NCBI GenBank assembly: GCA_963701295.1
Contig: OY969585.1
Coordinates: 2,816,001 to 2,880,000 of the forward strand
Length of the DNA: 64,000 bases
Direction: 5' to 3'
Origin: Ignavibacteriota bacterium
GTDB taxonomy: Bacteria; Bacteroidota; Ignavibacteria; UBA10030
Part shown: positions 41,373-61,500 of the stretch, piece after piece
How the letters are laid out: every line of letters begins with the position of its first letter
Position numbering within the stretch: position 1 is the first letter of the stretch
Made by a program: the position numbers and the translations under genes
Notes under the pieces: model-generated
Databases searched by the model: none
Seen by the model: the letters and a program-made list of their open reading frames with translations, nothing else
Told to the model about the DNA's origin: nothing

Positions 41373-42398
41373 TCAGAAAATTATACCTAAATCAATTTTC
41401 TGCACATACTTAAGACGGCCAAAATCCTGGTACGCGTAATCAAATGTAAATTGCAGATTACCAATCAGAAATTGCTTTACGCCCATACCGAGCGTGAGTC
41501 CTTCTTCTGAATCTTTTTGAAAGAGCGATTTCATTCCTGCTCTGAGATACAGAAAATCATAAAAAACGTACTCGCCTCCGACATTCATGCACTCGTAGTT
41601 ATCACTCGGATGCATTGCATCAGCTGCGAGCGTCATTTTTCCCAGTACGCCAATCGGAACATCATAGGAAATACCAACTCGGAAATTCAATGGTAAATCC
41701 CATTGGTCCGTTGCCAGATATGCCGGTATATTGCCGTTATTGCCTGTCGTTGACAAATCGGGGTCGTAAGAAACCAATGCATTTTCACCTTGTATTTGCA
41801 TCTTCGAGCCGAAGTTGGATATTGACATTCCAAGTATGATACCTTTAAATGGCGTTATGTATTTCACACCCATGTCAATTGCAATCGCACTTGCACTCAT
41901 TTTCCAAATTTGTTGATAGATAATCTTCGGAGTGAATCCTATCGAAAACGCATCAGTCAATTTCAAACCATATGTCAAACCTACAGCAAGGTCGGTAACG
42001 CTAAAAACTTCACCTGTTCCATCTTGTTGGTCGACTGTGGTCACCTTCATGTCTCCATAGTTAGAAACCGTAATATTCAAACCCAGAGCACCGTATGAAC
42101 CGAGAGATGTGGTAACACCGATGTACTCGTATTGAAGATCAGCAATCCAACTTGTATGGTCAATTAGCACTTGTATTCCTTGCAAATCAGCTATTCCTGC
42201 AGGGTTCCAATACATCGCACTTGGATCGTCCGCAATTGCTACAAAGGCGCCTCCCATGCCAAGGGCCCGCGCACCTTGCGCAATGGATAGAAATGGTGCA
42301 GCTGTGGTACCGCGTTTTGAGACGTCGCTCGTTTGTGCGGTTGTAAGCGCGCTGTAGAAGAAGATCAGTATTAGAATGCATTCAATTCTCATTTTCAT
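41373..42398 (-). CDS. PorV/PorQ-family outer-membrane beta-barrel
   Basis: FLSIAQGARALGMGGAFVAIADDPSAMYWNPAG; terminal DYAY...F. Confidence 0.88.
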   Translation of the reverse strand: MKMRIECILILIFFYSALTTAQTSDVSKRGTTAAPFLSIAQGARALGMGGAFVAIADDPSAMYWNPAGIADLQGIQVLIDHTSWIADLQYEYIGVTTSLGSYGALGLNITVSNYGDMKVTTVDQQDGTGEVFSVTDLAVGLTYGLKLTDAFSIGFTPKIIYQQIWKMSASAIAIDMGVKYITPFKGIILGMSISNFGSKMQIQGENALVSYDPDLSTTGNNGNIPAYLATDQWDLPLNFRVGISYDVPIGVLGKMTLAADAMHPSDNYECMNVGGEYVFYDFLYLRAGMKSLFQKDSEEGLTLGMGVKQFLIGNLQFTFDYAYQDFGRLKYVQKIDLGIIF

Positions 42399-42406
42399 AA
42401 AATACC

Positions 42407-45400
42407 TCACTTTACTACTGCGAATTTACCGATATACTGACCAATGCCAGGTGCATCGACATGGAAAATATAAAGACCATACGCAATATCCATTCCGTCA
42501 TCCGACACGAGATTCCAAGACATAGAGCCATCCATGGGCGATGTATTCTTGTAGAGTGTCTTCACGAGAGCACCAGCAATCGTATAAATCCGTATTGTAC
42601 ACTTCGCCGGTAGTTTCATGAATTGGATGAGACGATCACCACGGCCAGTTGAAAAAAGCGTACGAGATTCCCACTTTGCTGTGGCGAAATATGGATTGGG
42701 TACTACTGTTATTTGACTCAATTGGGTCTTCGCCGCACCATTATCTGTTCGAGAAGCAATCATCTTAAACAAAAAATAATCGCCTGAAAGAAATGGTCGG
42801 AATGTTTTGATGGCGAAACGATCTCCTGGTTGCGGCTCTTTGATCACCCCAAACGGTCTACCATAAGAAATCTTCCACGTCCATTTGAAGTTCCTATTGT
42901 TCACAACTTGATCAATAATCCGGATTGTATCTCCCACGGTTAATGTGCCGGAGGTATCCATGTCCTGAACGATGAACTTCGCTTGAACCCAATTGCTAGA
43001 AGTATCCTTCTTGAAGATGTGGAACTTAACCGGCATTCTTGGATAGGTAGGATCTCCCAATGAAAATGCAGAAGTATCCACAAATGTGTTGTACCATCGT
43101 ATTTCATAATCTGCCGGCCATGCGACTCTATTAGTAGATATAAAATCTTGCGCTACAAGAATCCTCACATTGCTTGACCCAACAACCCAGCCTGTACCAG
43201 CATCATTCACCGCAATCGAATCGTTCAGCACAGAGAGAATCATGCCATCAAACGGGAGCGTAATCTTGCCATTGCCTATGCTCGCCGTATCCGCACCAAG
43301 GATCAACGTATCCGTGACATTGTTGCGGGTTCTATAAATATCGAACGACTTTGTATGATAAATCGGTATGGTCGTATCAGACTTGAATTTTACTATATAT
43401 TGATCGCCATCCTGGATTTGCGCAGGATTTAGGATTGTCAACCTCAGGCTACCTGTTCCTAAACCCTGAGCTACGTGATCCATATCTCCGTTCGTTTGCG
43501 GTGGCAGATAACCCGCGGCCGGTTTCTGGGGCGTGACAACAGCACAATTGATGTCAACGAACTTGATATTCCCAGCATAATCCTGTGAAATGATTTTTGA
43601 GCATTCTGTTGGCTGCAACGGTTTTCCGTTCGGTGTCGGTCCTCCTTTCGAATATGAACACACAGCATAATAATACCGAACACCATTTGTAACTGTTGAA
43701 TCAATATACGAATGTTGCAAACCATTATTCGAACCGCGCCAGAACCGTGCACCGTTAATACCGACTGGATCCGGCCCTGCAATGCTGTCCACAAGATCAA
43801 ACTGTGCAATCGGCTTATAGTATTTAGGATTACCCTGGGAATCTGTAATTTTTTTGACGTCGTCAAATTCCGGTTCCTCACTTCGATAGATCGTATATCC
43901 TTCGAAACTCTTAAAATATCCCTGTGCAGGATCACCGTTTTGATAACCGTAGAAGCGATCCGTTGATGTTTCTGCGATATTATCCCAAAAAAGAGAAACC
44001 TTTTTATCGCTCGGAACCGCTGTAAGATGTGGGGTGTAGGGTGGTTTCGTGAATCGGTAGTTCGCATTATAGATATCTTGTACTGTTACTTTGTTGAAAA
44101 TGAGCGCATCCAAATTATCACCAAAAATAAGCGCCATAGAAAATCGCTCCCGTTTTGTCTGCTTCAGAGGGAAAGGACCAGAAGCAAACACCATTTGAAT
44201 ATTTGAGTTCTCGACCGTTGTGTCACGGAAGCCATTATTCATAGCATTCCACATTACCTCATCGTTACTTATCCATAACCCGGTTGGACCGTGAGTTTGA
44301 TCAAGGATTCTGATTGTCATTGCTGTCAATCCTATCATATCCGATTCGCCTATATCGGTCTCATCAAAATCCGGTTCGCCGTGTGTAGGTATACCGTCAC
44401 CTTCCCCTTCATCTGGTCCTGTGTAATTTAGGTCCGAAGGGCCAAGACCGTCTCGACCAACATCATCATTCAGTGGTTCGCCCGGGTCCCACTTACCATT
44501 ATGGTTCAGGTCGGTGTACGGGATCCAATTATGGTTGTCATCAATATTATTGTCACGACGCTCGTCGACCAATCCATTTAGATTATTATCGATTCCGTCA
44601 TAAGGATTTCCTGGACTTTCGAGGTAGGCGTATCCTATATAACCAGCCACGTAATTGGTAGCGCTTTGCGTTCCTTGACCGCACGTAGGGCACCACGCAT
44701 AAGTCAAGGCGAGAGATTGTCCTGCCCCATGCGTGCTCCTATCGAATAATGCGCTGTTACCTGGAGTGTTTGTTCCTCCTACGCCCGGATCTGTATAAAA
44801 ACCAAAACAGGTTGAATCATAATCATGGTCAGATATGTTCACGATATCATAATGCCAGAAGATGCAATCTTCCGCCAGGACGTGAGTCCATTGAAATCCA
44901 CGTACCTCTACCCGTAGACCAAGTCCTCCTCTGTCTGAATCAGAAGCAATCGGATAATAGTTGAATGGTGGACGCGTCCATTTTTTGTCTTTTGAATCAT
45001 CCATAACAAAAAATGTTTCAAAATCAGCATTCGAAACCCCCAATCCAAAATAGCCGTACCAATACCCATTCCATGCTGGTGTGAGACCAAGTGCAGCAGG
45101 CCATATCGGTGGAAAGGTTGAAGGATCTCTATTCACTGCAGGACTTTGAGAAGATGGATTTGCATAACCGGGAATGGGCTGCAATACCCACTCCTCGCCA
45201 GTCAAGGGATCTTTGCTGACAACTTCTCTGTAAGCGGAGACTAATGGAGTGATCGTTTGACCATTCGGCGCTATAATCTTCGCAGCGATCAACACGGCGG
45301 TTCCATCTAGATATGAATGTCCTGTGCCTTTTGGCCATTCAGCCGATGGTTCATCGGGCCAGTGTCCAACTTCTCCGTCATTTATGTAGACAGTTGAGAT

Positions 45401-45871
45401 GCGATTTCCATCCATAACACTTTTTTTCCGGTACTGAACATTGCCTTTCGGTTCATTGCGATACGCTTGAGTTTTTGCGTCAACGACAGACCCTGCAAGC
45501 CCAAACCCAATTACTTGCAGCGAATCTGGCGATGTCTGATCATTGCTCGTAACAATGAGCCACGCTGAAACGAGACCTGAGTGTGTGGGAATAAAATGAA
45601 TGGTATCAATGTATGACAATGCAGGTGCAATGGTGAACGCCATTTGATTCACTGAAAATTCTGGTTGGGTAAAATTGAGATTCGTAATCTTCAACGTATC
45701 AGTCCCGATATTCGCAATCAATATTGTAGTCTCATTCAGATGCGAATATTCGCCGACTCTCACATCTCCAAAATCAATCGATTGCGTGTTGAATGTGAGT
45801 TTCGGCTGTCCAAAAGCGAAAGTGAATCCCAGTGAGATTAAAATTGGAATAAGCGTTTTTTTTCGAAACAT
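42407..45871 (-). CDS. Large secreted hypothetical protein: Ig-like N-terminus, Asp-rich Ca-binding repeats, Fn3-like, variant T9SS CTD
   Basis: SIDFGDV..IANIGTDTLKI, DGIDNNLNGLVDE, VVPNPY...IQFMKLPAKCTIRIYT...GLYIFHV...GKFAVVK. Confidence 0.85.
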   Translation of the reverse strand: MFRKKTLIPILISLGFTFAFGQPKLTFNTQSIDFGDVRVGEYSHLNETTILIANIGTDTLKITNLNFTQPEFSVNQMAFTIAPALSYIDTIHFIPTHSGLVSAWLIVTSNDQTSPDSLQVIGFGLAGSVVDAKTQAYRNEPKGNVQYRKKSVMDGNRISTVYINDGEVGHWPDEPSAEWPKGTGHSYLDGTAVLIAAKIIAPNGQTITPLVSAYREVVSKDPLTGEEWVLQPIPGYANPSSQSPAVNRDPSTFPPIWPAALGLTPAWNGYWYGYFGLGVSNADFETFFVMDDSKDKKWTRPPFNYYPIASDSDRGGLGLRVEVRGFQWTHVLAEDCIFWHYDIVNISDHDYDSTCFGFYTDPGVGGTNTPGNSALFDRSTHGAGQSLALTYAWCPTCGQGTQSATNYVAGYIGYAYLESPGNPYDGIDNNLNGLVDERRDNNIDDNHNWIPYTDLNHNGKWDPGEPLNDDVGRDGLGPSDLNYTGPDEGEGDGIPTHGEPDFDETDIGESDMIGLTAMTIRILDQTHGPTGLWISNDEVMWNAMNNGFRDTTVENSNIQMVFASGPFPLKQTKRERFSMALIFGDNLDALIFNKVTVQDIYNANYRFTKPPYTPHLTAVPSDKKVSLFWDNIAETSTDRFYGYQNGDPAQGYFKSFEGYTIYRSEEPEFDDVKKITDSQGNPKYYKPIAQFDLVDSIAGPDPVGINGARFWRGSNNGLQHSYIDSTVTNGVRYYYAVCSYSKGGPTPNGKPLQPTECSKIISQDYAGNIKFVDINCAVVTPQKPAAGYLPPQTNGDMDHVAQGLGTGSLRLTILNPAQIQDGDQYIVKFKSDTTIPIYHTKSFDIYRTRNNVTDTLILGADTASIGNGKITLPFDGMILSVLNDSIAVNDAGTGWVVGSSNVRILVAQDFISTNRVAWPADYEIRWYNTFVDTSAFSLGDPTYPRMPVKFHIFKKDTSSNWVQAKFIVQDMDTSGTLTVGDTIRIIDQVVNNRNFKWTWKISYGRPFGVIKEPQPGDRFAIKTFRPFLSGDYFLFKMIASRTDNGAAKTQLSQITVVPNPYFATAKWESRTLFSTGRGDRLIQFMKLPAKCTIRIYTIAGALVKTLYKNTSPMDGSMSWNLVSDDGMDIAYGLYIFHVDAPGIGQYIGKFAVVK

Positions 45872-45899
45872 ATCTAACTCCTAAATTCGAAATCTATTC

Positions 45900-48677
45900 T
45901 TAGTAATCGACTCTGAAACCAAGCCGCACCTGACGCGGGGCCACGAAACTCGTTGGATCATTTAAGTATTGCTGTATTGTATTCAAGCCGACAATGGCGC
46001 CCGCCTGATAAGTGTACAAATCGATATTCGCTCTACCGCTCGCAGAATTTACATTTACTTCATTTTTTGTATCGAGAAGATTGTAGATTAATGCGAAGAG
46101 GGTGAAATGAACGTCTGCGAGAGAAACAGACTTTTCGGCACTCATATCCACATTAAATGTAGAAGGTTTGAGTCCTCCGTTTTCAAAACGCAGACCGCCC
46201 GAAACGCGAGTATCTTCAGTATAGGGAAATCCTGATCCATACGAAAAAATGAGTCCGACGTTCCAATCCTGAGGTTTGCCCACTGTGAAAGACAAGTTGA
46301 GAGTCGAACGTTGATCCCAACTCAACGGAACTACGGTTTTGTTTGTTTCAATCGGTGGAGATGTTTGATTATTATAAAACACTGACAGGGGATCGGACGC
46401 ATCACCTGAAGCCAGTTGATATGTATAATCAAGCTTCACACCATAATAGTCTGCAAAGCGGCGATCAAGCGAAAGAACAAAGCCTTTCACATTGCCATAA
46501 TCACGATTTACATATCTGGCATATTCAAAACCTTCATAGGTTTGTATAATTTCTGTACCAAGTAAATTACGGATGTCGTTATAGTACACCGAAAAATCAA
46601 GACCGACATTAGTGAAAAGAACCTGTTGAAGACCGATTTCATACTTGGTAGTTCGTTGCGGTTGAAGGTCTGGATTTCCTGCAATTGTGTTGAGGGTACT
46701 CGATGGTGGAACAAGATAATCAGAGTTTGTATACAGGTTGTCGAAACTTGGTATTTGGAAAAAATGCCCATACGAAAAGTGGATTATCCCCTGATCAGTA
46801 ATCGGGAAAGAAATGCCAAGACGCGGGCTAAATTGAGTTTTTTTACTCGCAGCTTTCCAGACATCCGGAAAAGGAAATAGAGGATTCTTTGTCGGATTCT
46901 TTAAATCCATCGGATAAGACGAAGCCGGATCAAAATAATCAAACCGAATGCCAGCATTAATAATCATCATATCGTATTCGACTTTGTCCTGGACATAGGC
47001 AGAGAGTTCGTTAGGTTTTTTAAAATACTCCTGATTACCTGGAGCGCCAAGATTCGGATATCCCAGTTGAGGGATGGCTATACCGGTAATACTGTCCATT
47101 ACTGTCGAGTTTAGATTGATTAAAGATGTTGAATGTGAATAAATTTCATGCTCGCGCCATTCAAGTCCGACACCGATTTTTTGTTTATTTGTAATTTGCG
47201 AATTTAACACCCACTGGACTATTCCTGTTTTTGTATATCGATCATAGCGACTGGTCTGGTTGCCACCTGAACGAAATGTATATGCAGTACCACCGCCAGT
47301 AGGTTGTCCTTGTGCAGGATCAACATAACGCGGATCGAGCGGATCTTCGTAAAGGTATCCCTTATAATTATACCAATTGTAACCGAACTTCAGAGTTTGA
47401 TATGTATTGACCGTCGGGGAATAGGTGATTTGAAACGAGTGAATCCAATCAGTACGATAGTGATTCATAATACCGTCCGGGGTCCATGCAAATGAATGGT
47501 CATAGTACTTATTCCAGTTGTCATCCCACAGACCGTTATAAATGAATTTTAAAGTTCCGATGGAATAGGCTAGTTTGCCATTGAGAGAACGTCTTTGAGA
47601 CGGATTCATTGCAACATATTCTGGATTTCCGATAAGCGAAGAAACATCGGATGAGCTTTGAGGAATGTACTGTTTGCCCCTGACGGTATAGACATAGATT
47701 GGGTTGCCATCTGGATAATACAATGGAACTCCCTGATTGGTTTTCAATTGGTACGGTGTTATATCTGTGACATCATAGACTCGCTGACCATAGAGGTAAC
47801 CTCTATCCGAAGAGTACCTTCCTGTCACAAAAAAAGTCAAACTAGAAATGTACGGAATATAGCCGCTTAGACTTCCTTGAATATTTTTTATCCCGAGATT
47901 CTTTATACTACCATTATTTGGAAAGATATCAGTATGCGAAGTGGCATAGTTACCGGTATAAGCGGAAATGGAACCATGGTACGTCGATGATCCTTCAGAC
48001 GTAACAACGTTGACGATACCAGACATTGCTTGGCCGTATTCTGCATTGAATGTTCCGCTGATGACTTCCATTTCACGAACTACCGAGTTGTCGATTTGCA
48101 GAGGCATGGAGCCATCGTAGGGATCGTTGACTGCAACTCCGTCAACTAAGTACGCTACTTCGCCTGAACGGCCGCCACGGAAATGACCACCAACAACTCC
48201 TGCCTGGATACTAATAACCTGGGAAATATTCTCTGTGGGAATGCGCTTCAATTCCTCTTCCGATACCGTCACAGAGGACGATGTGAGATCTTTTTGCACG
48301 AGAGGCCGCTCGGCCATAACGACCACATCACTTGTCTGAATCGCTTCCGAACGAAGTTTGACATCGATCTTTGTTGTCAAATCGATTTTCACAATAACAT
48401 TTGAGATAGTCGTCTTGCGATAGCCGACGAAACTGACTATAATAGAATATTCTCCCGGTGGTATGTTGTTAATGGTGTAAAAGCCATCCAAATCGGTTAC
48501 AGTGCCAAGTGACGTTTCTTTAACAAGAATGTTAGCAGTTATTAAAGGGTCATTGTTCGCCGCATCTGTCACACGACCAGCAATTTTGCCTGTCTGACCT
48601 GCTTGTGCCATTGCCGGAAAAAGGAGGAATGACACAACAAGGAGATGACCTAGTACATTGCATACAGTCTTCGACAT
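45900..48677 (-). CDS. TonB-dependent receptor with carboxypeptidase-regulatory N-domain
   Basis: GKIAGRVTD, HFRGGRSGEV, SGTFNAEYG, FSPRLG, NPDLQPQRT, PRQVRLG. Confidence 0.93.
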   Translation of the reverse strand: MSKTVCNVLGHLLVVSFLLFPAMAQAGQTGKIAGRVTDAANNDPLITANILVKETSLGTVTDLDGFYTINNIPPGEYSIIVSFVGYRKTTISNVIVKIDLTTKIDVKLRSEAIQTSDVVVMAERPLVQKDLTSSSVTVSEEELKRIPTENISQVISIQAGVVGGHFRGGRSGEVAYLVDGVAVNDPYDGSMPLQIDNSVVREMEVISGTFNAEYGQAMSGIVNVVTSEGSSTYHGSISAYTGNYATSHTDIFPNNGSIKNLGIKNIQGSLSGYIPYISSLTFFVTGRYSSDRGYLYGQRVYDVTDITPYQLKTNQGVPLYYPDGNPIYVYTVRGKQYIPQSSSDVSSLIGNPEYVAMNPSQRRSLNGKLAYSIGTLKFIYNGLWDDNWNKYYDHSFAWTPDGIMNHYRTDWIHSFQITYSPTVNTYQTLKFGYNWYNYKGYLYEDPLDPRYVDPAQGQPTGGGTAYTFRSGGNQTSRYDRYTKTGIVQWVLNSQITNKQKIGVGLEWREHEIYSHSTSLINLNSTVMDSITGIAIPQLGYPNLGAPGNQEYFKKPNELSAYVQDKVEYDMMIINAGIRFDYFDPASSYPMDLKNPTKNPLFPFPDVWKAASKKTQFSPRLGISFPITDQGIIHFSYGHFFQIPSFDNLYTNSDYLVPPSSTLNTIAGNPDLQPQRTTKYEIGLQQVLFTNVGLDFSVYYNDIRNLLGTEIIQTYEGFEYARYVNRDYGNVKGFVLSLDRRFADYYGVKLDYTYQLASGDASDPLSVFYNNQTSPPIETNKTVVPLSWDQRSTLNLSFTVGKPQDWNVGLIFSYGSGFPYTEDTRVSGGLRFENGGLKPSTFNVDMSAEKSVSLADVHFTLFALIYNLLDTKNEVNVNSASGRANIDLYTYQAGAIVGLNTIQQYLNDPTSFVAPRQVRLGFRVDY

Positions 48678-48739
48678 AGTTGGTATACCTTCTCTTTTTT
48701 ACAACTTGCTTAGGGTCATTTTTTTTATTTTAATGATCA

Positions 48740-48774: not shown

Positions 48775-48784
48775 TTGAATTGTT

Positions 48785-51316
48785 TCACTTCAGCAGGAGT
48801 AATTTATGCGTAGCCCCAAACGAACCAGATTCCAGACGATAGAAATAAACCCCGCTGGAAAAGCTTTGTCCCGCCGTGTTGAAGGTCACAGTATAAGTGC
48901 CGGCAACCTGATTTTCATCGACCAACGTCGATACCTCACGACCTAGCATATCGTATACCTTCAGAGAAACATTTCCAGGTTTTTCTATGCTGTACTTAAT
49001 TTTTGTCGAAGGGTTGAATGGATTGGGATAGTTCTGCGAAAGCGTATATTTTACAGGAACAACACTCACCTGTTCCACGGAGACCGTTGGCGTCATCAAA
49101 TTACCAATCCACGTATACGTCCAATGCCACATATCTTGGTACGAGTTGTCATTATTCAACGGGGAATAACACAGCATTCCGTCTCTGAAATCTGCGGCAG
49201 TCTTGTTGTCCCGATCATTGATCTCGAAGTCAATTGGAATTCTCATACCTTCCGCTGGTACAAAAAGCTTATCACCCGACCTGGCTTTGGTGAACGCCGT
49301 AAACGGAATTTTTGCCTCCACGGTATAACCCGAACCAATAATCTTTTGGACCCATGCATAGTCCGGGTTGGGATTCATACCATTCGAATATGCGTACATC
49401 AATGTAACATTTAAACCGTCAAGTCGAACCCGATTCTGGGAGAAGCGAATATGATAATCTGGCTTTACGCCACCGGGCAGTCCGCTATGGAACTTGCCTC
49501 TCCAGTCATAGAGACCGATAAAGAGATCAGGGGCATCCTGTTCGTAGTCAAGTGAGGAGGCAGTATCAACTTTAACCACATCATCGGTCACATCAAACGC
49601 TACATAGAGGTAGTTTGCATCTACAGCCAAGTAGGCCTTGGCAGAGCAATCAGCGTCATTGTCAATAACACCGTTCTCATTCACATGAGCAGTCCCAGAA
49701 TCCTTCGAAATGAGAAATGGTTTGATTCCTGCCGATATCCACTCTGAAAGATCCCCATCAGCAGCGAAGTTTGTTGGCGGAGCTTTAGCAATGGTTGGGA
49801 CACCTTTGGCCAACGTTGTAATAGGACCCTTTAAAGAGGTGCCGCTCAGATTACCTGATACATCTTTTGCCTGGACACCATAATAATAGGTCAGTAATTG
49901 GTTGGTGTTTGGTGCACGAAGAATGTGTGTAACATTGAGTGCTTGAATATTATATGGTGGTATATCCTCGACAGTTGTGTCGGTTGGATCCGTCCACGGA
50001 TGATCAGCGACATAGACATTGTAGGTCACATTGGGTTTGTTTGTGACCGCATTCCAACTAAACACATTCGAGAACGTGCTGGATGCTACGTTAAGTCCTG
50101 TCGCAGAATCCGGCGGAATCACATCAAGAATAGGATTACCCGTCCAGACGTTTGTTATCCAGATCATTTTGCCGGCGATCCCACTGTTTTCAGTCATAAA
50201 CTGGAACACTGTAATAGCAGAAGAATCAAAAGCATGACCCGCATTTTCGTCTATGAAACTCCTTAGTGGAAGAGAGTATTGATGCCATTGACCATCTTGG
50301 GACGGAGTGAATACAGAACCTCTTTTTCCGGCAGCAGCTGTTTCGAACTGCGCACGCAACGCTCCAGTCCCCACATCTACCTTCATCATAAAATTCAAAC
50401 TATCGACATGCCATGCTCCAGCAAGGTTTACAGGAGATTTAAGATTAGCTCCGCCTCCTCCCCAACCGTTGACCTGCACCATCTGAATTGCATTGAGTTT
50501 GGGTGTAGGACCTGCCCCTGGTACAACACTCATAGTGACTCCAGACCACGTCCACAAGCTGCTCGGTTGCACATATGTACCATTGTAGTCCTTCCCTGTA
50601 AAGTAGACGAAAGGAATTGGTCGGTAACCAGTTCTCTCGAATTTATCAAACGATACTTCGATAGAATCTGCCGGAATATTTCCAGAAGCAACAGCGGGTG
50701 GGGGAGTTGTAACAAGAACAAGATACCATGCAACAATTTTATCCCGATCAAGTTTGTGATTATTCCATGTTAATCCGCCCCAATTAGAAGGAGCTACAAT
50801 AAAACCTGTGCTATCCGGGGCTTCTGAACCTGTTGATGGTCTTTCAATAATTGGTATACGAATATTTACCCAGTCCGAGGTAACATTATCAAGAATTCCA
50901 TCATTTTGGTAAATGTAAGTTTCTACAGGATCTCCTTGATTGGGTTGATCAAGAAGCTCCACACGAAATGACATCCATTGTGGATGTTGCGGTGCCATAC
51001 GAACCTTATACCAGAGACTAATTGTATCACTCGAACTATAATCCCATGGCGTATCACCAGTTTTTTGTGCAATCCCAAATTGAGAGAAAGTGCCCCAGGA
51101 ATATAACGAATCAAGCCTTGAACGCACCTTCATCGAAGACCAACCTTCCACCTTATCCGTTGAGTCGATTGAAAGGCGAATATAGCATTTCCCACCTCCG
51201 TTCGCCGTTGTGTATGTGGTGCCGGGGGCATTAAAATTATCAATTGTGTATACTTGTCCATACGAAGCAAATGATAATACTGCGATGGCAAGTGCGAGAA
51301 AAGGTAACATCCGCAT
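48785..51316 (-). CDS. Multi-CBM surface glycan-binding protein (CBM9-like domain) with T9SS CTD
   Basis: ADGDLSEW, YLYVAFDVTDD, GYTVEAKIPF, DFEINDRD; NYPNPFNPST. Confidence 0.8.
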   Translation of the reverse strand: MRMLPFLALAIAVLSFASYGQVYTIDNFNAPGTTYTTANGGGKCYIRLSIDSTDKVEGWSSMKVRSRLDSLYSWGTFSQFGIAQKTGDTPWDYSSSDTISLWYKVRMAPQHPQWMSFRVELLDQPNQGDPVETYIYQNDGILDNVTSDWVNIRIPIIERPSTGSEAPDSTGFIVAPSNWGGLTWNNHKLDRDKIVAWYLVLVTTPPPAVASGNIPADSIEVSFDKFERTGYRPIPFVYFTGKDYNGTYVQPSSLWTWSGVTMSVVPGAGPTPKLNAIQMVQVNGWGGGGANLKSPVNLAGAWHVDSLNFMMKVDVGTGALRAQFETAAAGKRGSVFTPSQDGQWHQYSLPLRSFIDENAGHAFDSSAITVFQFMTENSGIAGKMIWITNVWTGNPILDVIPPDSATGLNVASSTFSNVFSWNAVTNKPNVTYNVYVADHPWTDPTDTTVEDIPPYNIQALNVTHILRAPNTNQLLTYYYGVQAKDVSGNLSGTSLKGPITTLAKGVPTIAKAPPTNFAADGDLSEWISAGIKPFLISKDSGTAHVNENGVIDNDADCSAKAYLAVDANYLYVAFDVTDDVVKVDTASSLDYEQDAPDLFIGLYDWRGKFHSGLPGGVKPDYHIRFSQNRVRLDGLNVTLMYAYSNGMNPNPDYAWVQKIIGSGYTVEAKIPFTAFTKARSGDKLFVPAEGMRIPIDFEINDRDNKTAADFRDGMLCYSPLNNDNSYQDMWHWTYTWIGNLMTPTVSVEQVSVVPVKYTLSQNYPNPFNPSTKIKYSIEKPGNVSLKVYDMLGREVSTLVDENQVAGTYTVTFNTAGQSFSSGVYFYRLESGSFGATHKLLLLK

Positions 51317-52925: not shown

Positions 52926-53603
52926 TTATATTTTCAGTTTGAATTCAATCCATTCGTAATTCATGTTTCCATTTGCAACCGTATGGAGCGTGAGGATGTG
53001 AATACCTTTTTGCAATTCAACTTGCGCTAAAGTAAATGCAAGATTCCAATGATGCCATTGCCTCCATGCAACAGTGTCTCTCTCTTGGTGTGTAGATGGA
53101 ACGAGTAGCGGACCTGAAATATCTTTTCCATCTATTGAAAGAGATATAGTGCCATTTCCGTTTGCAGTATACATAAGGCCGACATCATATTTTCCCGTTT
53201 CATTTACTTGTACCGTATAATTAATCCACTCGCCAGGCACGGTCCATCCCACATACAATTGTCCCATAAGAGGTTCTGTAAGATTATATTTATTATCGTC
53301 TATATCTCCAGTTTTGGTGTAGGAAATATCAACTCCTTCCTTCATACGAAATTCATTCAGAAATGTGCCGTTCGCAGGATTGAGTTTCCCACTTCCATTG
53401 TTGACCGAATCATTATCATGATAGGCGATTCCTTCTCCACCTGTATCATAAAGCGCGCACTGAATTTTACCAGGAATTTGCTGAGGATGGTCATTCCAAG
53501 CCTTACCTTTGTATTTCTCCTGTGAGAAAGTTTTGGGGGAACAAAACATAAAACCTGTAATTAATAGCAGGCAAAAACTACAAAAATTGATGTTTTTTCT
53601 CAT
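52926..53603 (-). CDS. Secreted CBM6-type carbohydrate-binding protein
   Basis: IPGKIQ..YDTGGEGIAYHD, VGWTVPGEWINYTV. Confidence 0.8.
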   Translation of the reverse strand: MRKNINFCSFCLLLITGFMFCSPKTFSQEKYKGKAWNDHPQQIPGKIQCALYDTGGEGIAYHDNDSVNNGSGKLNPANGTFLNEFRMKEGVDISYTKTGDIDDNKYNLTEPLMGQLYVGWTVPGEWINYTVQVNETGKYDVGLMYTANGNGTISLSIDGKDISGPLLVPSTHQERDTVAWRQWHHWNLAFTLAQVELQKGIHILTLHTVANGNMNYEWIEFKLKI

Positions 53604-53795: not shown

Positions 53796-55016
53796 TCACC
53801 TACTATAATAAGGGGCACCAGAATTACCCATATCAATTGCCACTATTGAGGGGTCACTTGACATAACACGTTCATAAAGAATATTACCTGTCCATGTTAA
53901 CCCACCAACTGCGGTTGTAATAAGATTTTTATACAATGGGCGCATTCCTGTGACCGTACCCGTGCTGTAGTAGACCAACAAAATGGGATCGACACTTTTA
54001 TCGGTAGCAATGTACATATTACCGTTAGCGGAAAAGGTCAAATCTTTAACCTTTGAAGTGGCATAATCACCGCTCGTGCTCCACAGTAATACCTGTTCTT
54101 GTGTTCCTAATGTGCCACCCGAAATTTGATGACGATAAACACCAGTGGTGGTTCCTCCTACAGCTAGAACATAAACATAATTTTGAAAAACGCGTACAGC
54201 CAAAATATTATAATTGACATAAGAAGGTCCTTTGGCCACTGAGGTTGCTTGAACGATATCTATGGTTTTATTTGTCCCTGATGTTCCCCCTGCATAAATA
54301 ACTCCATTTTGATCAAAGTCGAAACATGTCATATTTTCAAGAAAGCCGAATAATTTGGTTAGATTACCTCCTCCGCGTGCAACGGAATGAAATTCTCCAT
54401 CACTTCCCGTCATCAGTGCGTATAATGTCCCATTCGGCACAATCCGCATACAAGAAATTGTTAAACTGGTTGAATATGTAGCATAATCGCTCATTATCCC
54501 ATTTGTCGAAATTTTACGAATTACTTTATACGTTCCGGTACTGTCACGAGCACTAATAACCGCTACGTATACATTGCCAGAAGTATCAGAGGCAATAGTA
54601 TTCGAGAGTGTAGAACCGGGAAATGTACCAAGCGGTGTTACAACTCTTTTTATTTTATATTTTATTTGGGCAACATCATCAGCAAGCTGAACAACAACTC
54701 TTGTAGAAATAGTTTCACCGTAAGTTAACGGCCTGAGCATTACAATCTGATTCGAAGTAAAATTGGTGATAATACCAGGTTCTATTCCAAAATAGACAGA
54801 GCATTGATCCACAGTAGTCCCAAAATTACTTCCATTGATCGTGATATCAAGAACACCACCAATTGCACTATCCGCAGGAGAAATGCTCGTAATGACAGGG
54901 GATGCGACAGGATTTGCCGCTGGCGGCCAGCCCGGCGGAATAATATTATCAACGCACCCCGAAAGTAGAGCTACGATGATTACAAATGTAATAATAATAA
55001 ATATATTTTTTTTCAT
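53796..55016 (-). CDS. IPT/TIG + beta-propeller lipoprotein
   Basis: Lipobox LSGC; PVITSISP...ITINGSNFG. Confidence 0.8.
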   Translation of the reverse strand: MKKNIFIIITFVIIVALLSGCVDNIIPPGWPPAANPVASPVITSISPADSAIGGVLDITINGSNFGTTVDQCSVYFGIEPGIITNFTSNQIVMLRPLTYGETISTRVVVQLADDVAQIKYKIKRVVTPLGTFPGSTLSNTIASDTSGNVYVAVISARDSTGTYKVIRKISTNGIMSDYATYSTSLTISCMRIVPNGTLYALMTGSDGEFHSVARGGGNLTKLFGFLENMTCFDFDQNGVIYAGGTSGTNKTIDIVQATSVAKGPSYVNYNILAVRVFQNYVYVLAVGGTTTGVYRHQISGGTLGTQEQVLLWSTSGDYATSKVKDLTFSANGNMYIATDKSVDPILLVYYSTGTVTGMRPLYKNLITTAVGGLTWTGNILYERVMSSDPSIVAIDMGNSGAPYYSR

Positions 55017-55030
55017 GTTTAATCTCCTCA

Positions 55031-56035
55031 CTATATCTTTAATCTTACCGTAATGCGCTGAATGTCATCGAAATATTTCATCGGTGTGTACGCATAATCT
55101 ATTGCAAGGCCAAACTGCGATACGCCAACTCCATAACTGAATTGTTCTAAATCAGCGTGCGAGTTATAGCCTAAGCGGAAGGAGATCGTATTCATAAATG
55201 TATAGTTTATGCCTATTAAAAGTTGTTCCGGGTACGAACGATCATGTGTTAAATCGACCGACACGATCAAGCTTTGATCTTCCTTAGCTTTTTCCCAAAA
55301 ATCCATTACATCCATGGAAACACCGAGAGTAAAAAGAAGCGGCATTTGAAACGATTCCTGTTCATACGTTAGCTGTCCGGAAAAGTGACGAATAGATATT
55401 CCAAACGAAAGACTCTTGAGTCCAGTTTTAAAAAGGGTACCAAAGTCAAAAGCTATCGGATTCATCTTAAAAGAAGTCTTTACCGTGCTGGAATCCCTGA
55501 TGTCAATGCTTGTGGGAACATCGCCATCTCCCAAACTCTGGTGAACATATTTTATCTGACCTCCGACGGAAAACTGATCGGTCAATTTATTAGCATAGCC
55601 GATGCCCGCGCTATAGGCTTGCAAAGAAAATGTACCTAAATACAGAAAATTATCATTATTATTGTACACTATGGTTCTATAAAAATCACCATAGTTTACA
55701 TCCTGTACTGATACACCAACAATGCCCCATGAACCCAAATTAACAGCCGCGCTAAATTGCGTATGTTTAATATCGGCGATCCATGGGTTATAACTTGCCG
55801 ATACTTCTGCGGTATTTTTCATTTCCGTTAAGCAGGCGGGGTTGAAAAAAAGTGAACTCGAGCCCATTGGCAGTGTGTTAACTGCACCAGCCATTCCGGC
55901 TGCTTTTGCATCTGAAATAACACTCAAGAAATCAAAACCGGTTTGCGCAAGTTTGACATTATCTTGAGCAATGCTGCCATTTCTCATAGATATAAGAAAG
56001 ACAAGCTCAATGAAAAGAATTATTCTTATTTTCAT
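55031..56035 (-). CDS. PorV/PorQ-family outer-membrane beta-barrel (second paralog)
   Basis: KLAQTGFDFL..DAKAAGMAG..FFNPA; DYAYTP. Confidence 0.85.
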   Translation of the reverse strand: MKIRIILFIELVFLISMRNGSIAQDNVKLAQTGFDFLSVISDAKAAGMAGAVNTLPMGSSSLFFNPACLTEMKNTAEVSASYNPWIADIKHTQFSAAVNLGSWGIVGVSVQDVNYGDFYRTIVYNNNDNFLYLGTFSLQAYSAGIGYANKLTDQFSVGGQIKYVHQSLGDGDVPTSIDIRDSSTVKTSFKMNPIAFDFGTLFKTGLKSLSFGISIRHFSGQLTYEQESFQMPLLFTLGVSMDVMDFWEKAKEDQSLIVSVDLTHDRSYPEQLLIGINYTFMNTISFRLGYNSHADLEQFSYGVGVSQFGLAIDYAYTPMKYFDDIQRITVRLKI

Positions 56036-56060
56036 AACATTTATTCCTCAGATTAATTTG

Positions 56061-58315
56061 TCAACGAATTACAACAAATTTTCTGTATATGGACTTACCA
56101 CTACTTGTTTGAAAATGAGCAATATATATCCCGCTTACGATCGTTTGACCGTATGTTGTTTTTTGATTCCAATGTTCGTCTCCGCTCCCATTCGTATGTT
56201 CCATCTGCCATATCAGTTCTCCACGCTCAGTGAATATCCGGATAGTACACCCTTCCTTCGGTAAATTCACAAACGCGATTCTATCCTGGTCAAAACCTTG
56301 GTTGGCAAGCGTCGGATCAAGAGTCAATCCCCACTGTAGTTTTCTGGATCTTACGATATATGGATTGGGAACTATATAGATAGAATCCATTCCGGATTTA
56401 CCCTCTTTAAGCAAATAAGCACCCTCCTCCGTTTGGGTTAAGAACTGACTACTTACCAAAGGAACACCCGGTTCAATCGTATTAGTCGAGCCGTCATCTT
56501 TGCTCTGGATGTAGTAAAAATATTCTGTGGCACGCGCTACTGCGGTATCAAGATATGTATCGTTAGGATACGATTTATCACATTCCCATATTTTCTTGTA
56601 TACCGTTATATCATCATATACACTTCCGGCTGCACGATATATCACAAATCCGTTGAAATGAGCTGATGCTCTGGCTTCACTAGCTGTCCACGAAAGCTGA
56701 ATGCCATTAGCACTAGAAGTTACATTAAATTGCGCAGGCGCCGGAGGCGGTTGAAGAGCATGGTAGTCGGAATTATATAAATCTATTGCTCTTTGGAACA
56801 TTCTTTGGATTGAGTAAGGCTTCGTGGAGTCTTCAATAGAAAATACCCATGCGTCTTTGTATTGGTTATAAGGTGCGGCATCGATTTTATATTTAGTATA
56901 AACTGGGTTAGCACTGACAAGTGAGCTGGTACCGATACTGACACCAGAGGGCATCGTGAATGCCGGTGTAACTCCGCCTGAAGGATTATACCCTGCATAC
57001 CAATTATTTGAAACCACGCGATTCGAATCTCGATCGAGTCCCGTTACTCCTTCGGCTAAAACAATATGAATACTATCGCCGGGGGCAAGCTTGTATGGTC
57101 CGAAACCCTGTATTTGCCCTGGACCGGCAGTACTACCTTGCAGCATTGTTTTTGAAAATTGATCTGCGCATGTTGCGCTACTTGCAACAAACTCATCCGC
57201 ATAGCTCTTCGGATGAAGTCCTGTATTTCCGCCAAGACTCATAAATTTATACCATCGAGCCATTGAAGTTTCATCATAAGGCGGGCACGCATAATCTAAA
57301 GGATCATCCGCATTGATATATGCCGTATTCATCGGTTGAGTTTTATCGTCACTTTGATCATGCGCCGATTTATCAGCATGGAGCGTAACACAACCTACAT
57401 ACCGCGCAGCAGCAAGCACGCTTCCAGATTGATACGGATTAGGACATCCCCAGTCATCCAGGACTTTGTTGTCCCCACTATGAGGACCATAATACCCATA
57501 CAGCGCTCGATATTTAAAGTCCGCACTCGTTGGGTCTGTGCCCATAACCTGAACTAATGTATTAACTCCCCAGCGCGTACTTTGTGCCGACCAACCAACA
57601 ACAGGAAAATTAGAACTTGCTACGGCTTCTCCAGCAAGACTATACCGATATTGGAATAGAAATAGACAACTATCAAGAGTCTGAGGTACCACTGTTCCTG
57701 CTACATTAATAATTCCCGTGTTTTTGAAAACATAATCGTAGATAAAGAAATTATTATTGTATTGATTGGGAAAAACCATAATCTTTCTCGTCATCGTTAT
57801 TCCCATCGGAGTATTAATCGTATTGACGATCATTCGATCTGCCTGCATGGTGGGGTCTATCTCATCCAACTTATCATAAAGACCCATTGTCGCATTGGCA
57901 ATTTTTCCATCGACGGTTACCACGGGGTGATTATATTTTCCTATATATTTAAACGGTTGAGTAAGTGCGTTGAGACCGTCATAGCTCCCTGAGCGAGGAC
58001 CGAGTGTCAGCACTTTGTATTTGAAGGGTAGTTTGCTAACAGGATCTATGAAATTTTGACAGCCGATCCATAAGCCTTTCGCCCGTACAGAACAAGATTT
58101 TAATCCATACGCAGCAGGCCAGACATAGGCCGGTCCATAAAGGGGGTTTCATCGCTTTCCGTTTCAGTGCCATAATCTGTAAAATATGACTGGATATTAC
58201 TAAAACGTATCCACGCTCTTAAACCCTGTGCTTTCACAGAAACTGTGGAAAGAACTACAGCGATAAAAACAAAAATTAAAAATAAAAGTATATTACGTCT
58301 CATAAACAGTTTCAT
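56061..58315 (-). CDS. Secreted hypothetical protein with Fn3-like domain and variant T9SS CTD; frameshift near 58100-58140
   Basis: Signal peptide in 58100-58315, body in the 56061 frame; IVPNPY...IAFVNLP..CTIRIFTERGEL...SGIYIAHF...KFVVIR. Confidence 0.8.
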
Positions 58316-58332
58316 GGAATTTTCTCCTCCAA

Positions 58333-61300
58333 TCATATTTTAAACGATAGCTTCATTCCGAAAAATATTTGCCGTGGATTCAAAAATGTGAATGACGTTA
58401 AATTGGGCATATCGATATACGCCTTGGTGCTCAAAATTTTATCCATTCTTGCTTTATCAACTTCCACCCATTGACCATTCGTAACCTCGTTATACGTCGC
58501 TGTTTGTGCACCATAATAAATTGTTCCCGCAATCACACTGGAAATAGGCGGTAAAGAACTCACCCATAATACAGGTTGATAATCAGCACCATTTGCTCTA
58601 TAGTCACCGATTCTATCATTTCCCGGTACGTTATTATATACATCGCTTTTAGGAAGATGAAGAGATTCCATATATGAATCTTCGTCGGCAGTACCAGAAA
58701 ATGAATTCATATTCATCTTTTTGTAATTCAGAACATTATACACATCGACAAACAACTCGACGTTTACAGTCCTCAAATCAAAGGCCTTGCTAAATCTTAA
58801 TTGGACGTCACAGTTATCTGTGGTTTGCACATTATTGTTTATTCCATATCTACCGAACGGATTATAAGTGGTATACGAACCCGCTTGCCAATTGAATTGC
58901 ACATTTAACAAAAAACTACCCAACGGTATAAAAGAGCCCCAGTGAGGACCAAAATCCTCAGGAGTAAATAAACTGATGTTCACTCGAGCATAAGGACTGG
59001 GAACGGGCACTTGTTGGTACGACTTATCTGTTTGTGCAGCATAATTTGTTTGATCTGTGACATTCTCATATTCGAAATTATTGCCAAACCAACCTCCAGA
59101 AATCGATTGATATGTGTAGTTTGCAAATCCCGTCCAAAACTGACCGCTAGTCTTTCGTAAAGAAATTTCAAGGCCACGAACATCCTGCATAACCAGAACT
59201 TATGGGCTGAGCGTACCCATTGAGGTACCCATAGGTACATACGTAACAGTAAGTGTATTTCCATTGATATCGAGCTGATCATTTGTGATATCCCGATAAA
59301 ATGCGCTTATTTGGAGAAGAATATTATCACCTAAGTAATGATCATACCCGAGCTCGTAGGCAACAGTTTTCGCCAGAGTTTGATTTGGATTACCGAAGTT
59401 TGCAACTTGTCCAGATGATGAGCGGCCTATAGCATACATATTTTCGTATGACGGCATTTGCATAAAATGTCCGTAATTGAAATAAAGTTTTGAGTTTTCT
59501 GTAATTGGATGTGCAATACCGAGGCGTGGACTAAATTGCCATTGTGGTTTTGATCGGGTAAGAGGTACTTCCGAAGTTGCATTGGGTCCAAAAAACGACA
59601 CAGAGAATGGATTACCAGTGTACCAATCCGTCTGAGGATCGCTATAATCCACCCTGAATCCTAAATTAGCAACAAATCCATTTGTCTCTAATTTATCCTG
59701 GATATACATACCTGCTCTGATGGGGTAAACACGCATTAGAATACGGTCTTGATAGGATAGACCGTCACTTAATGCATAAACTTGTCCATAATCAAAAGAC
59801 AAATCGTTATAAACAAATTCTATTCCTGTTTTGAGTAAGTTCTTGAAGTCAATCTGACTTGTAAAATCTGCCTTCAACGATGTTGCAGATACTTCACTAT
59901 GGTCCCGATACAAACATTCGGAACCTCCAAACTCAAGCCCCGTTGGCCCCATTGTTTTCATGGTAGCATATCCGTATGGCTCTTCATTGACAAAGAAACC
60001 ATTCACAATTTGATAAACCGAATCCATGTTCCGTCCCGCCGAAGGTTCGGAAAGGTACGATCGCGTTATTCGCTCGAGTCTAATTTCATAATATGATGTT
60101 GGAGAAAGGAATTGAGTTACATCTCCCGAAATTGAGTTATATGATATTTCAGACGGGCTGAAATACGCTGTATTAAAGAGTCCAGTTTGACCATAGCCTG
60201 CAATTTGATCAGCTACTTGCTGCGGAGTCGTGATATAGAGACCGCTAGCCCAGTTTTGAGCCAGCGTGAAAGGCCAGTTTTGAGCTTGCGAATATTGTTT
60301 ACCAGAAAAGAATGCTACGGCCAACTTCAAGGATTTTGTCAGGTCTGAGTTAAATCGCACGTTCCAGTCCCAATTCACATTATCGTCTCGTGTCAATGGA
60401 ACCAAGAGCGTTACGTCTTGTCTACGGTAGGTACTAAAGAAACGAAGATCGCCTAGATACTTATCAATAAAAGGTACCGGACCGCCAAAACCTGCATCAA
60501 CATCATAATCGGGTTGGGCAACTGGTCGTCTTCGTGTATCGAAAAGAAATTGCTTTTGTAGCGCCTCTGGAGAAAGATATGTAGAACCAACCGTTGTATT
60601 TCTTTCCTGTGATACCGTATTCCATCCCTCCCAATTTGGATATGAAGCTTGAGTATATGTATCCCAAGCACCATTACTCGTACCTGTCCAACAAACTGCG
60701 GGATCTAAATACGGCCGTAGCCAATAAGAATTTTTATCAAACGGTGATATACCCATAGCTTTATATTGGTACGGGCTAGCGCGAACAGTCGCTGTCGCGG
60801 TATAGTGTGATTTATCTCCCTCTTTCGTAATCACATTGACGATGCCGGAGCGAACCTGGCCATATTCGGCATTAAACCCACCGCGTTCTATAGAAACTTC
60901 TTTAACAGAACTCATCGCAATCGATGAAATAGGGCTATTATTCCGTGGATCACGGAGTGATATACCATTAACCTGAAACAATGCATCACTCTGGTCTCCA
61001 CCACGGATTTGCATATTTTCCTTTACACCGGCTTGAGTCTGAATAACCGACAGCATATTTGAAACGGGCAGTTGACTAATTTCATCACTACTCACTGTAA
61101 CAACGGCGGCAGACACATCGGGTTTGATAAGCCTTTCCCCATAAACAATTGTTTCTTCAACTTGGACATCTTTTGCCTCGAGGGTGACATCGACGCGTGC
61201 TGTTTGATCAATGTAAACCCTCACATCAGTCATGACAATTTTTCTATAACCAACGCAAGAGATTTGAACTTGATATATTCCCGGAGGAACGGACAATATA

Positions 61301-61500
61301 GAATATTCTCCACTCATATCTGTAGAAACACCAAGAGATGTACCGAGGACGATGACATTAGCTTCCATGATAGGTTCACCGTTTAATTTATCGGTAATCG
61401 TCCCTGCAATTTTTCCTGTAGTACCTGCTATCCCAATCACAGATAAAGAAAACAGCCCTAATAATAAGAGCAATGTCAGAAAAAGAAATCTACTTTTCAT
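58333..61500 (-). CDS. TonB-dependent receptor; frameshift near 59200
   Basis: GKIAGTITD, IRGG, GGFNAEYG, FSPRLG; C-terminal part DVRGLE...NPRQIFFGMKLSF in the next frame. Confidence 0.9.

Follow-up and report, generated by a model that had tools for sequence, protein, structure and literature searches.

The question raised by this locus is how glycan oligosaccharides are imported by a bacterium whose TonB-dependent receptors are not followed by a SusD-like lipoprotein. Polysaccharide utilisation loci are found by means of the SusC/SusD pair. Few susCD genes are reported from the gene clusters of Ignavibacteriales (PMC10576277), which raises the question of how glycans enter these sediment and soil degraders. 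We have analysed a window of 64,000 nucleotides from an Ignavibacteriota bacterium, for which the original prediction was that one order of genes (TonB receptor, middle protein ending in a variant C-terminal domain (CTD), PorV paralog) occurs twice in a glucan locus. Indeed, both modules, termed A and B, were found on the minus strand, but the arrangement occurs ten times in the genome. The relevant features are as follows:

25152..41103, minus strand: beta-1,3-glucan genes (GH30, MFS sugar transporter, GH17-like, GH149 phosphorylase, PPIase-like, GH3, GH5-CBM6, GH16)
41373..42398, minus strand: PorV/PorQ-family barrel B (NF033709, 212 bits)
42407..45871, minus strand: middle protein B, 1154 aa
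42410..42715, minus strand: variant CTD of middle protein B (VVPNPY...GKFAVVK), with barrel B as its predicted binding partner
45900..48677, minus strand: TonB-dependent receptor B, 925 aa (Pfam Plug, TonB_dep_Rec barrel, CarboxypepD domain)
48785..51316, minus strand: secreted CBM9-like protein that ends in an ordinary type-A CTD, immediately upstream of receptor B
52926..53603, minus strand: CBM6-type protein, which accompanies module A in two relatives
53796..55016, minus strand: IPT/TIG lipoprotein (Pfam TIG; lipobox LLSGC), directly downstream of barrel A
55031..56035, minus strand: PorV/PorQ-family barrel A (NF033709, 178.5 bits)
56061..58315, minus strand: middle protein A, about 750 aa (signal peptide without lipobox, supersandwich, linker helices, FnIII, variant CTD)
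58333..61500, minus strand: TonB-dependent receptor A, type A, about 1050 aa (Plug, TonB_dep_Rec barrel, CarboxypepD)

Organization of the two modules

All three genes of module B are intact and separated by gaps of 28 bp (receptor/middle) and 8 bp (middle/barrel). Middle protein B comprises a signal peptide, an Ig domain, a supersandwich, a linker helix, an FnIII domain, an extra beta domain and the variant CTD, and an acidic insertion in its supersandwich is likely to bind Ca. Receptor B falls outside the SusC/RagA family, scoring 88.3 bits on TIGR04056 against a cut-off of 368 bits, and the N-terminal piece of receptor A reaches 59 bits against the same cut-off. Both barrels exceed the 90-bit cut-off of NF033709 and are thus members of the PorV/PorQ family, barrel B giving in addition a profile match to solved PorV at E 5.9e-22; the two lie below both equivalog cut-offs, scoring 81 and 72 bits for PorV (NF033710, cut-off 250) and 105 and 84 bits for PorQ (NF033711, cut-off 220).

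In module A the trio genes are separated by 17 and 25 bp, and as the IPT/TIG lipoprotein directly follows the barrel, the module consists of four genes. The predicted gene content stood as regards the order of the trio, but the fourth gene had been missed and two frames are broken in the present assembly: in receptor A two compensating indels near 59186-59233 result in a stop at 59200-59202, and middle gene A carries a frameshift near 58123-58138. The orthologs are intact in the same-genus genomes G072 and G188 (1053 and 1050 aa for the receptor, 756 and 759 aa for the middle protein), and a contig of a relative in run X1 is devoid of the extra bases. A search of sequencing runs yielded no run with half of the query words, and no RNA run among the matches listed. 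The breaks may represent an assembly error or real decay, and module A may be dead in the present strain. The IPT/TIG lipoprotein, which likely includes a beta-propeller, lies downstream of the barrel in 5/5 type-A trios of the genome and, among related loci, is present in 49 of the 55 type-A loci with room for it versus none of 101 type-B loci. This lipoprotein is not a SusD. Together, the four genes of module A form a movable cassette.

The downstream beta-1,3-glucan genes stay beside module B in G072 and G188, and the CBM9-like secreted protein is a frequent neighbour of module B orthologs. Homologs of the beta-glucan genes adjoin middle B orthologs (at least 47% identity) in 32 of 34 loci and are rarer elsewhere (12 of 66 more distant middle-B homologs, 1 of 64 type-A loci). 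The substrate of module B is likely a beta-1,3-glucan oligosaccharide. Scans for a sigma-54 motif and for sigma-70 and terminator signals gave results at or below chance.

Trios, T9SS and SusD in the genome

The genome (99.3% complete) encodes ten trios, which account for 10 of its 14 PorV-family genes above the cut-off; most of the other trios also adjoin sugar genes, two of the ten being without obvious sugar genes nearby. The SusD families PF07980, PF14322 and PF12771 gave no match in the genome, the Bacteroides thetaiotaomicron control being positive each time, and no SusC (TIGR04056) exceeded its cut-off. The prediction that no SusD-like lipoprotein follows either receptor is hence borne out, both for these proteins and for the whole genome. 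SprA, PorU and PorV are all encoded, GldK scores below its cut-off, and GldM gave no match in the genome or in the controls. The middle proteins have the features of T9SS cargo, namely a signal peptide and a CTD of predicted Ig-like fold, and the genome encodes both SprA and PorV. The best PorV-family gene of the genome adjoins PorU, away from the trios, and since the trio barrels are in addition below the PorV equivalog cut-off, we have rejected them as the housekeeping PorV. In a protein tree of the genome's 15 PorV-family members only the type-A clade is resolved.

The variant CTD and its predicted barrel partner

When scored on a type-A CTD profile derived from 99 tails encoded in the same genome, the tails of the ten trios reach 0-22 bits, versus 94-167 bits on trio profiles that include the scored tails, in agreement with the claim that they carry a variant distinct from the CTD of the enzymes. 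On the type-A families TIGR04183/PF18962 middle protein A reaches 15.6 bits against a cut-off of 23, and middle protein B has no match. As for type B, neither TIGR04131 nor PF11751 matched the trio genes or exceeded its cut-off anywhere in the genome, the control genomes being also blank, and a Pfam scan of the trio proteins revealed neither a type-B tail nor a PorP barrel family; a type-B/PorP system was rejected on these grounds. Both tails match the PorZ profile weakly (E 3e-4 and 0.017), and PorZ contributes the sole CTD to the 50 best structural matches found with the type-A model (Z 11.9, rmsd 2.6, 87 residues).

The original prediction assigned to each barrel the role of a private shuttle or anchor of its middle protein. 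For module B the tail is indeed predicted to bind the co-encoded barrel, the complex scoring 0.93 versus 0.01 for the best control, with controls that were unrelated proteins only. The runs share at least 87% of contacts, the partner pLDDT is at least 77, and the same mark is reached by 116 of 157 solved pairs and 2 of 215 mismatched pairs. Complexes of PorV with tails have been solved (entries 8gl6-8gln, which share a PorV chain; PMC10994853), so that the predicted complex may pass through likeness; also, as close cousins of true partners pass, the result need not reflect specificity for the cognate barrel. None of the confident contacts involves the type-specific loop of the tail (residues 32-50 of the piece that was modelled). 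Analysis of barrel-versus-tail mutual information over 91 paired rows gave top scores that barely exceed near-neighbour swaps and involve mostly one loop position. Of the top 15 covarying pairs, four map to the modelled interface, compared with a mean of 1.5 and at most 3 in 40 swaps, and the excess is weaker in larger sets, in which 5 of 40 swaps reach the top-60 count. Because the excess fades and the complex model was built from the same alignments, covariation was given no weight.

Fold of the middle proteins

AlphaFold models of both types, that of type A being of an intact paralog from the same genome, evidence an N-terminal supersandwich of the GH15/GH94 type followed by FnIII and the tail domain, which is PorZ-like in type A. 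Both models are mostly beta. A SusD or a catalytic fold, either of which would have conflicted with the original prediction, was looked for, and the models contain no SusD fold and no catalytic (alpha/alpha)6 barrel. N-termini resembling signal peptides were recognised by eye, and the two middle proteins of the window have no lipobox. A middle protein with SusD fold was rejected on the basis of the mostly-beta models and the lack of a SusD Pfam match and of a lipobox. Foldseek searches with whole models were swamped by FnIII repeats, and the fact that no SusD appeared among the matches listed is no test of absence; an Atlas structure search returned unnamed clusters only.

The N-domains best match the N-terminal supersandwich of glucan-active GH15/GH94/GH116 enzymes, with top Z of 18.4 and 20.4, rmsd of 3.5 and 3.0, 259 and 264 residues aligned and 8-12% identity. 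A GH174 endo-fucanase, in which the supersandwich stands alone as an enzyme, aligns to the whole N-domain (Z 13.8 and 14.9), its structure 9k1g covering model residues 21-478 at Z 14.9, and for this reason the fold alone is compatible with catalysis. At the level of sequence, the type-A profile gave no significant match to PDB chains (best E 0.023), and the type-A and type-B N-domain profiles were not alignable (best probability 1.5%); the two types are thus linked only by FnIII, the CTD and the predicted fold. Each type has conserved acidic residues in its N-domain, not alignable between types and, in type B, located to a large extent in the acidic insertion, and conserved tryptophans are also found.

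Conservation of the trio

We have surveyed 226 related loci, considering as informative those with room for the neighbour in question. A receptor of the same type lies upstream of the middle gene in 209 of 211 informative loci and a barrel of the same type downstream in 197 of 199, and cross-type pairs are absent from the surveyed loci. Chance juxtaposition is rejected by these numbers, and the neighbourhood survey proposed with the original prediction shows that the trio is kept. The receptor/middle adjacency spans several phyla, yet the flanking genes have been rearranged even between genomes of the same genus. Linkage and kinship act as confounding factors in the statistics on neighbours. 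Distances among the trio genes are correlated (rho 0.73-0.93), as are those among the ten trios of the genome (Mantel 0.80-0.86). The co-phylogeny check that had been suggested gives correlations, but linkage alone explains them and these mirror-tree results were set aside. In type A the divergence of the N-domain follows that of the receptor closely, with a partial correlation of 0.70 given the barrel.

Middle protein B has 3305 matches. Genomes with a middle-B match contain more PorV-family matches (5-22 in 35 genomes) than those without (0-7 in 38 genomes, 35 of which hold 4 or fewer). SusD is also encoded in 33 of the 80 genomes with a middle-B match, and for this reason the term 'SusD replacement', as originally put forward, is too strong.

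Comparison with known systems

The trio shares with SusC/SusD (RagA/RagB) a TonB receptor with a CarboxypepD-like extension, a partner encoded by the next gene, location in CAZyme clusters and multiplication per substrate. The SusD fold is TPR-helical. In contrast, the partner in the trio is predicted to be all-beta, without lipobox and with a T9SS tail, the receptor scores far under the SusC cut-off, and the third gene encodes a putative anchor. In Porphyromonas gingivalis, PorZ-PorQ (and PorU-PorV) likewise associate a T9SS cargo with atypical CTD and a PorV-family barrel partner; PorQ-PorZ assembles without PorV (PMC10947112) and PorZ is reported to deliver A-LPS to PorU. Whereas PorZ is a single housekeeping component, the trio proteins occur in ten copies, with a supersandwich-FnIII body, TonB receptors and sugar loci. 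Type-B CTD cargo with PorP/SprF, from Flavobacterium johnsoniae, resembles the trio in that the barrel gene is directly downstream of the cargo gene, and cognate pairing and stoichiometric use have been shown (PMC12618676). However, the trio tails are not type B and the trio barrels are not PorP; the type-B cargo are adhesins, either established or predicted, and the main text of that paper nowhere mentions 'TonB'. The PorZ-PorQ pair is a closer precedent for the trio than type-B/PorP. In the models, the middle proteins share the supersandwich fold and linker helices with the N-domains of GH15/GH65/GH94/GH116 and with GH174 but, unlike GH15/GH65/GH94 enzymes, have no (alpha/alpha)6 catalytic barrel. 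No description of a trio of TonB receptor, supersandwich protein and PorV-family barrel was found in the literature searched, and the available part of PMC5317091 has no PorV or T9SS term.

Role of the middle protein

On balance, we lean towards the middle protein being exported by the T9SS and tethered to the barrel, where it would capture glycans in a role that parallels that of SusD. It would leave the cell through SprA and would be picked up not by the housekeeping PorV but by the barrel encoded next to it. The complex model suggests that this PorV/PorQ-family barrel grips the C-terminal tail and so keeps the protein on the cell surface; by analogy with PorZ on PorQ, the tail may escape PorU cleavage. 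The protein would contact the receptor or sit near it, and its supersandwich would bind sugar, capturing oligosaccharides for the importer, which is SusD's job in Bacteroides.

The supersandwich could instead be catalytic, the middle protein being a tethered surface enzyme (an endo-glycanase or a sugar-modifying one) that feeds the importer. Aldose epimerases use this fold for catalysis, as does, apparently, GH174, for which activity and acidic catalytic residues are described (PMC11943901), and the N-domain of each type has conserved acidic residues. We nevertheless regard an enzyme as unlikely: the N-domains of GH15/GH94/GH116, which are non-catalytic, match best and exceed GH174 by 4-5 Z units; no alignable acid pair is common to both types, many of the type-B acids being those of the acidic insertion; the loci already hold typical secreted hydrolases with ordinary type-A tails; and the use of one family across alpha-glucan, beta-glucan and other sugar loci would better suit a binding scaffold. 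It is distinctly unlikely that the middle protein is a receptor cap or assembly factor, or the barrel a transient private shuttle, with capture performed by the receptor, the IPT/TIG lipoprotein (type A) or neighbouring CBM proteins. Type-A modules do bring their own lipoprotein, a CBM9-like neighbour is usual for module B orthologs, and the co-divergence of N-domain and receptor in type A suits a structural partner equally; but type-B modules lack the lipoprotein, a supersandwich of carbohydrate-enzyme type with conserved tryptophans suggests a ligand site, and ten separate barrels suit stoichiometric anchoring, as argued for the type-B shuttles (PMC12618676), better than recycling. Very improbable is a receptor merely co-regulated with a neighbouring middle/barrel pair acting as a surface adhesin or glycan-attachment unit; the distance and Mantel correlations, which follow from linkage alone, agree with such a scenario, but against it stand the adjacency kept across several phyla, the types that are never mixed and the reshuffled flanks.

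Returning to the barrel-tethered capture partner, a broader and more tentative proposal is that the trio constitutes a second, independently built machine for outer-membrane glycan import in the wider Bacteroidota and sister phyla (Ignavibacteria, KSB1, Marinimicrobia/Fidelibacterota, Calditrichia). In this machine the T9SS, in place of lipoprotein flipping, would deliver a supersandwich 'lid', a paralog-specific PorV-type barrel would lock each lid next to the TonB receptor of the same trio, and CTDs of a third class would serve as addresses. If true, the trio would provide a marker for the glycan-uptake loci of these sediment and soil degraders and a testable function for thousands of unnamed proteins; it would also link the T9SS to TonB-dependent uptake and offer naturally occurring tail/barrel pairs in which the addressing of secretion signals could be studied.

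Two modules in the glucan locus

Both modules of the original prediction, each formed by a TonB-dependent receptor, a middle protein with a variant type IX secretion system (T9SS) C-terminal domain (CTD) and a PorV/PorQ-family barrel, were recovered as described, on the minus strand and with intergenic gaps of 8-28 bp; an IPT/TIG lipoprotein gene overlooked there directly follows the module A barrel.

58333-61500, minus strand, receptor A
56061-58315, minus strand, middle protein A
55031-56035, minus strand, barrel A
53796-55016, IPT/TIG lipoprotein, fourth gene of module A
45900-48677, minus strand, receptor B
42407-45871, minus strand, middle protein B (1154 aa)
41373-42398, minus strand, barrel B

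The two receptors contain plug, barrel and CarboxypepD-like domains and score far under the SusC cut-off, and the barrels lie above the cut-off of the PorV/PorQ family model and below the PorV and PorQ equivalog cut-offs. Module B has no broken gene. Module A is interrupted in two genes: a stop at 59200-59202 lies in the receptor frame, between two indels that compensate each other, and the reading frame of the middle gene shifts near 58123-58138. The orthologs in two genomes of the same genus (G072 and G188; 80-83% identity) are unbroken (receptor 1053 and 1050 aa, middle protein 756 and 759 aa), and both sequence alignments and the contig of one relative show the window to carry extra bases at the break sites. 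A search for sequencing runs turned up none from this strain. The breaks could represent real decay, or an assembly error, which is plausible because sprA and two further middle genes are likewise split in this assembly. The sprA gene (L013:7808-14759; G000:C1:3470808-3477759) appears as overlapping frames of 2035 and 310 aa, resembling other long split genes of the assembly, likely from an indel error. Another type-A middle gene (L005:11043-13504) lies in two frames of 379 and 374 aa, a break that may be genuine since a homolog in G072 (G072:C3:983098-985390) is interrupted at a comparable place. A phage-type integrase gene (22109-23164) lies just past the end of the locus.

Trios and secretion machinery in the genome

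The genome (a single 3.64-Mb contig, 99.3% complete) encodes ten trios, five of type A and five of type B, one of the latter divergent; thus the gene order described as occurring twice is present in both places, but recurs ten times genome-wide. The trios take up 10 of the 14 PorV-family genes over cut-off, and a lipoprotein ends all five type-A trios. The claimed absence of SusD beside the receptors extends to the whole genome, where three SusD families found no match (a control genome was positive), and no receptor exceeds the SusC cut-off.

SprA, PorU and PorV are encoded, PorV adjoining PorU; PorP and type-B CTD tails gave nothing over cut-off. GldK has only a weak match and GldM none, in a search run without positive control, so this T9SS may lack the known motor. 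Around 105 C-termini score best with the type-A CTD profile, on which the ten trio tails reach 0-22 bits, in agreement with the proposed distinction from the enzymes' CTD. Their consensus reads V.PNPY, a long type-specific loop, F..LP..CT.RI.T..G.L and then K.FV.IR or KFA.IK. A 761-aa protein (G000:C1:1390893-1393178), possibly PorZ, has a tail scoring on the trio profiles and not on type A; a second PorU-like protein has 1789 aa (G000:C1:2916226-2921595). A further atypical CTD belongs to a 516-aa protein (L012:6671-10079) whose gene precedes those of two PorV-like barrels; no TonB receptor was seen alongside.

Conservation of the trio

Of 7994 candidates scored for middle protein B, 3305 are relatives; for an intact type-A paralog the figure is 483 of 7998. 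Few of these carry a name, which is 'hypothetical protein' except for one 'fibronectin type III domain-containing protein', and record titles cover Ignavibacteria, KSB1, Neomarinimicrobiota and Calditrichia. Within the phylum, 137 of 301 genomes match middle protein B, some weakly. We surveyed 226 loci (77 type A, 149 type B), picked as top or spread middle-protein matches; a stricter initial pass over 146 loci had missed a few owing to overlapping ORF calls. The predicted conservation was upheld: a same-type receptor lies upstream in 209 (contig end in 15, not found in 2) and a same-type barrel downstream in 197 (contig end in 27, not found in 2), none of the 226 being mixed, counts that are descriptive because of kinship among the loci, several of which come from the same genome. 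Where there is room, the lipoprotein follows in 49 of 55 type-A versus 0 of 101 type-B loci.

The 35 genomes counted that match middle protein B have 5-22 PorV-family matches each, versus 0-7 in 38 genomes that do not. SusD occurs in 33 of 80 middle-B genomes (12 of 52 for the class to which the window belongs), so that the trio often stands alone, yet can coexist with SusC/SusD. In genome G002 a complete type-B trio (L141, G002:C1:1267500-1282500) lies ~12 kb from a SusD gene (G002:C1:1289857-1290513), thus both systems can share a neighbourhood.

Genomic context and probable substrate

In loci of at least 9 kb we sought the beta-glucan genes of the window (CBM9-like protein, GH3, GH5, GH16, GH17-like, GH30, GH149). 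Homologs adjoin 32 of 34 close middle-B orthologs, defined by 47% identity or more, a threshold chosen after seeing the ranking, and are found beside 12 of 66 distant relatives and 1 of 64 type-A loci. G072 keeps the GH30-MFS-GH17-GH149 run with module B and has module A on a separate contig without these genes, and in G188 module A is at the opposite end of the locus. These arrangements mark module B as the core of the beta-1,3-glucan locus and module A as a movable cassette.

Elsewhere in the genome, a Pfam scan of 36 neighbours places the other trios beside GH3/MFS/CBM9, GH77/LacI/GH13, sodium symporter/CBM9, GH35/GH59 and sugar-kinase/GH31 genes, except for two trios whose surroundings show no evident sugar genes. 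The divergent trio (L003:6592-14301), which may have a non-glycan role, sits right behind ribosomal protein genes, is followed by a GWxTD-domain protein and lacks sugar genes. Directly upstream of the glucan locus (62161-64000 and L014:2161-6437) are genes for a sugar-binding protein, for what is likely a sensor kinase and for a response regulator of the sigma-54 type; a second type-A trio of the genome has the same set (L004:2369-6410), and homologous regulators adjoin several type-A trios elsewhere (L068, L069, L072, L113). The sigma-54 consensus was not found upstream. A SurA/PrsA-like PPIase protein of ~620 aa, which may be a folding helper, is encoded near type-B trios (31364-33223, L002:13535-15391 and several relatives).

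Structure and proposed function of the middle protein

AlphaFold models of an intact type-A paralog encoded in this genome (118 sequences, pLDDT 91.7) and of middle protein B minus its Ig domain (69 sequences, pLDDT 89.2) share a predicted large beta-supersandwich, linker helices, FnIII and CTD, type B adding a beta domain. By profile comparison the FnIII and CTD of one type are homologous to those of the other (probabilities 97.8 and 98.9), with no alignment between the N-domains. In a comparison with 48,161 PDB representatives, the models most resemble the domains found at the N-terminus of dextran dextrinase, glucoamylase, GH116 and the phosphorylases of cellodextrin and laminaribiose, with Z of up to 18.4 and 20.4. 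The type-A model tail matches the PorZ CTD (Z 11.9, rmsd 2.6, 87 residues, 26% identity).

Folded together, the last 122 residues of middle protein B and the barrel encoded with it (91 paired rows for each, unrelated proteins as controls) scored 0.93 versus 0.01 for the best control, with contact agreement between runs of at least 87% and partner pLDDT of at least 77. Of 157 solved pairs 116 attained this mark, as did 2 of 215 mismatched ones, counts that carry over only roughly to these alignments. One CTD-sandwich face would pack against the barrel's N-terminal segment and loops, the type-specific loop being outside the confident contacts. As PorV complexes with type-A tails are already solved (PMC10994853), the score may be owed to likeness with them.

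The reading we favour, by a small margin over even odds, is that the middle protein passes through SprA, is picked up by the co-encoded barrel via its variant tail and stays uncleaved and tethered, as PorZ on PorQ, a pair that forms without PorV (PMC10947112), its supersandwich acting as a glycan binder displayed next to the receptor. Having no lipobox, the protein needs a barrel-type anchor. Type-B CTD cargo depends on cognate co-encoded shuttles (PMC12618676). The complete version, a lid with private addressing, is somewhat doubtful. A tethered enzyme is improbable, though kept alive by the GH174 endo-fucanase (PMC11943901), which matches the whole N-domain (Z 13.8 and 14.9); the catalytic helical barrel of the best-matching enzymes, a fold that would have spoken against a SusD-like role, is absent from both models. 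Slightly less probable still, in our view, is that the protein is a structural cap or the barrel a transient shuttle, other proteins doing the capture, and mere co-regulation of neighbours quite unlikely, types being unmixed across the loci.

Full-text searches of main texts, few subscription papers among them, turned up no description of the trio; relevant gene tables could stand in supplements. In published work susCD is scarce in Ignavibacteriales clusters (PMC10576277), Mros0761-0759 are named SusC, D and E, as assigned there (PMC3534657), and for a Rhodothermus xylan locus a TonB receptor is listed, followed by two hypothetical proteins, the first with a Por tail (PMC6987092, Table 1), which may be an unrecognised trio. 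The trio is a real and widespread module of known kinds of parts and is apparently undescribed; it probably represents a new form of TonB-dependent glycan uptake in which T9SS anchors the partner protein.
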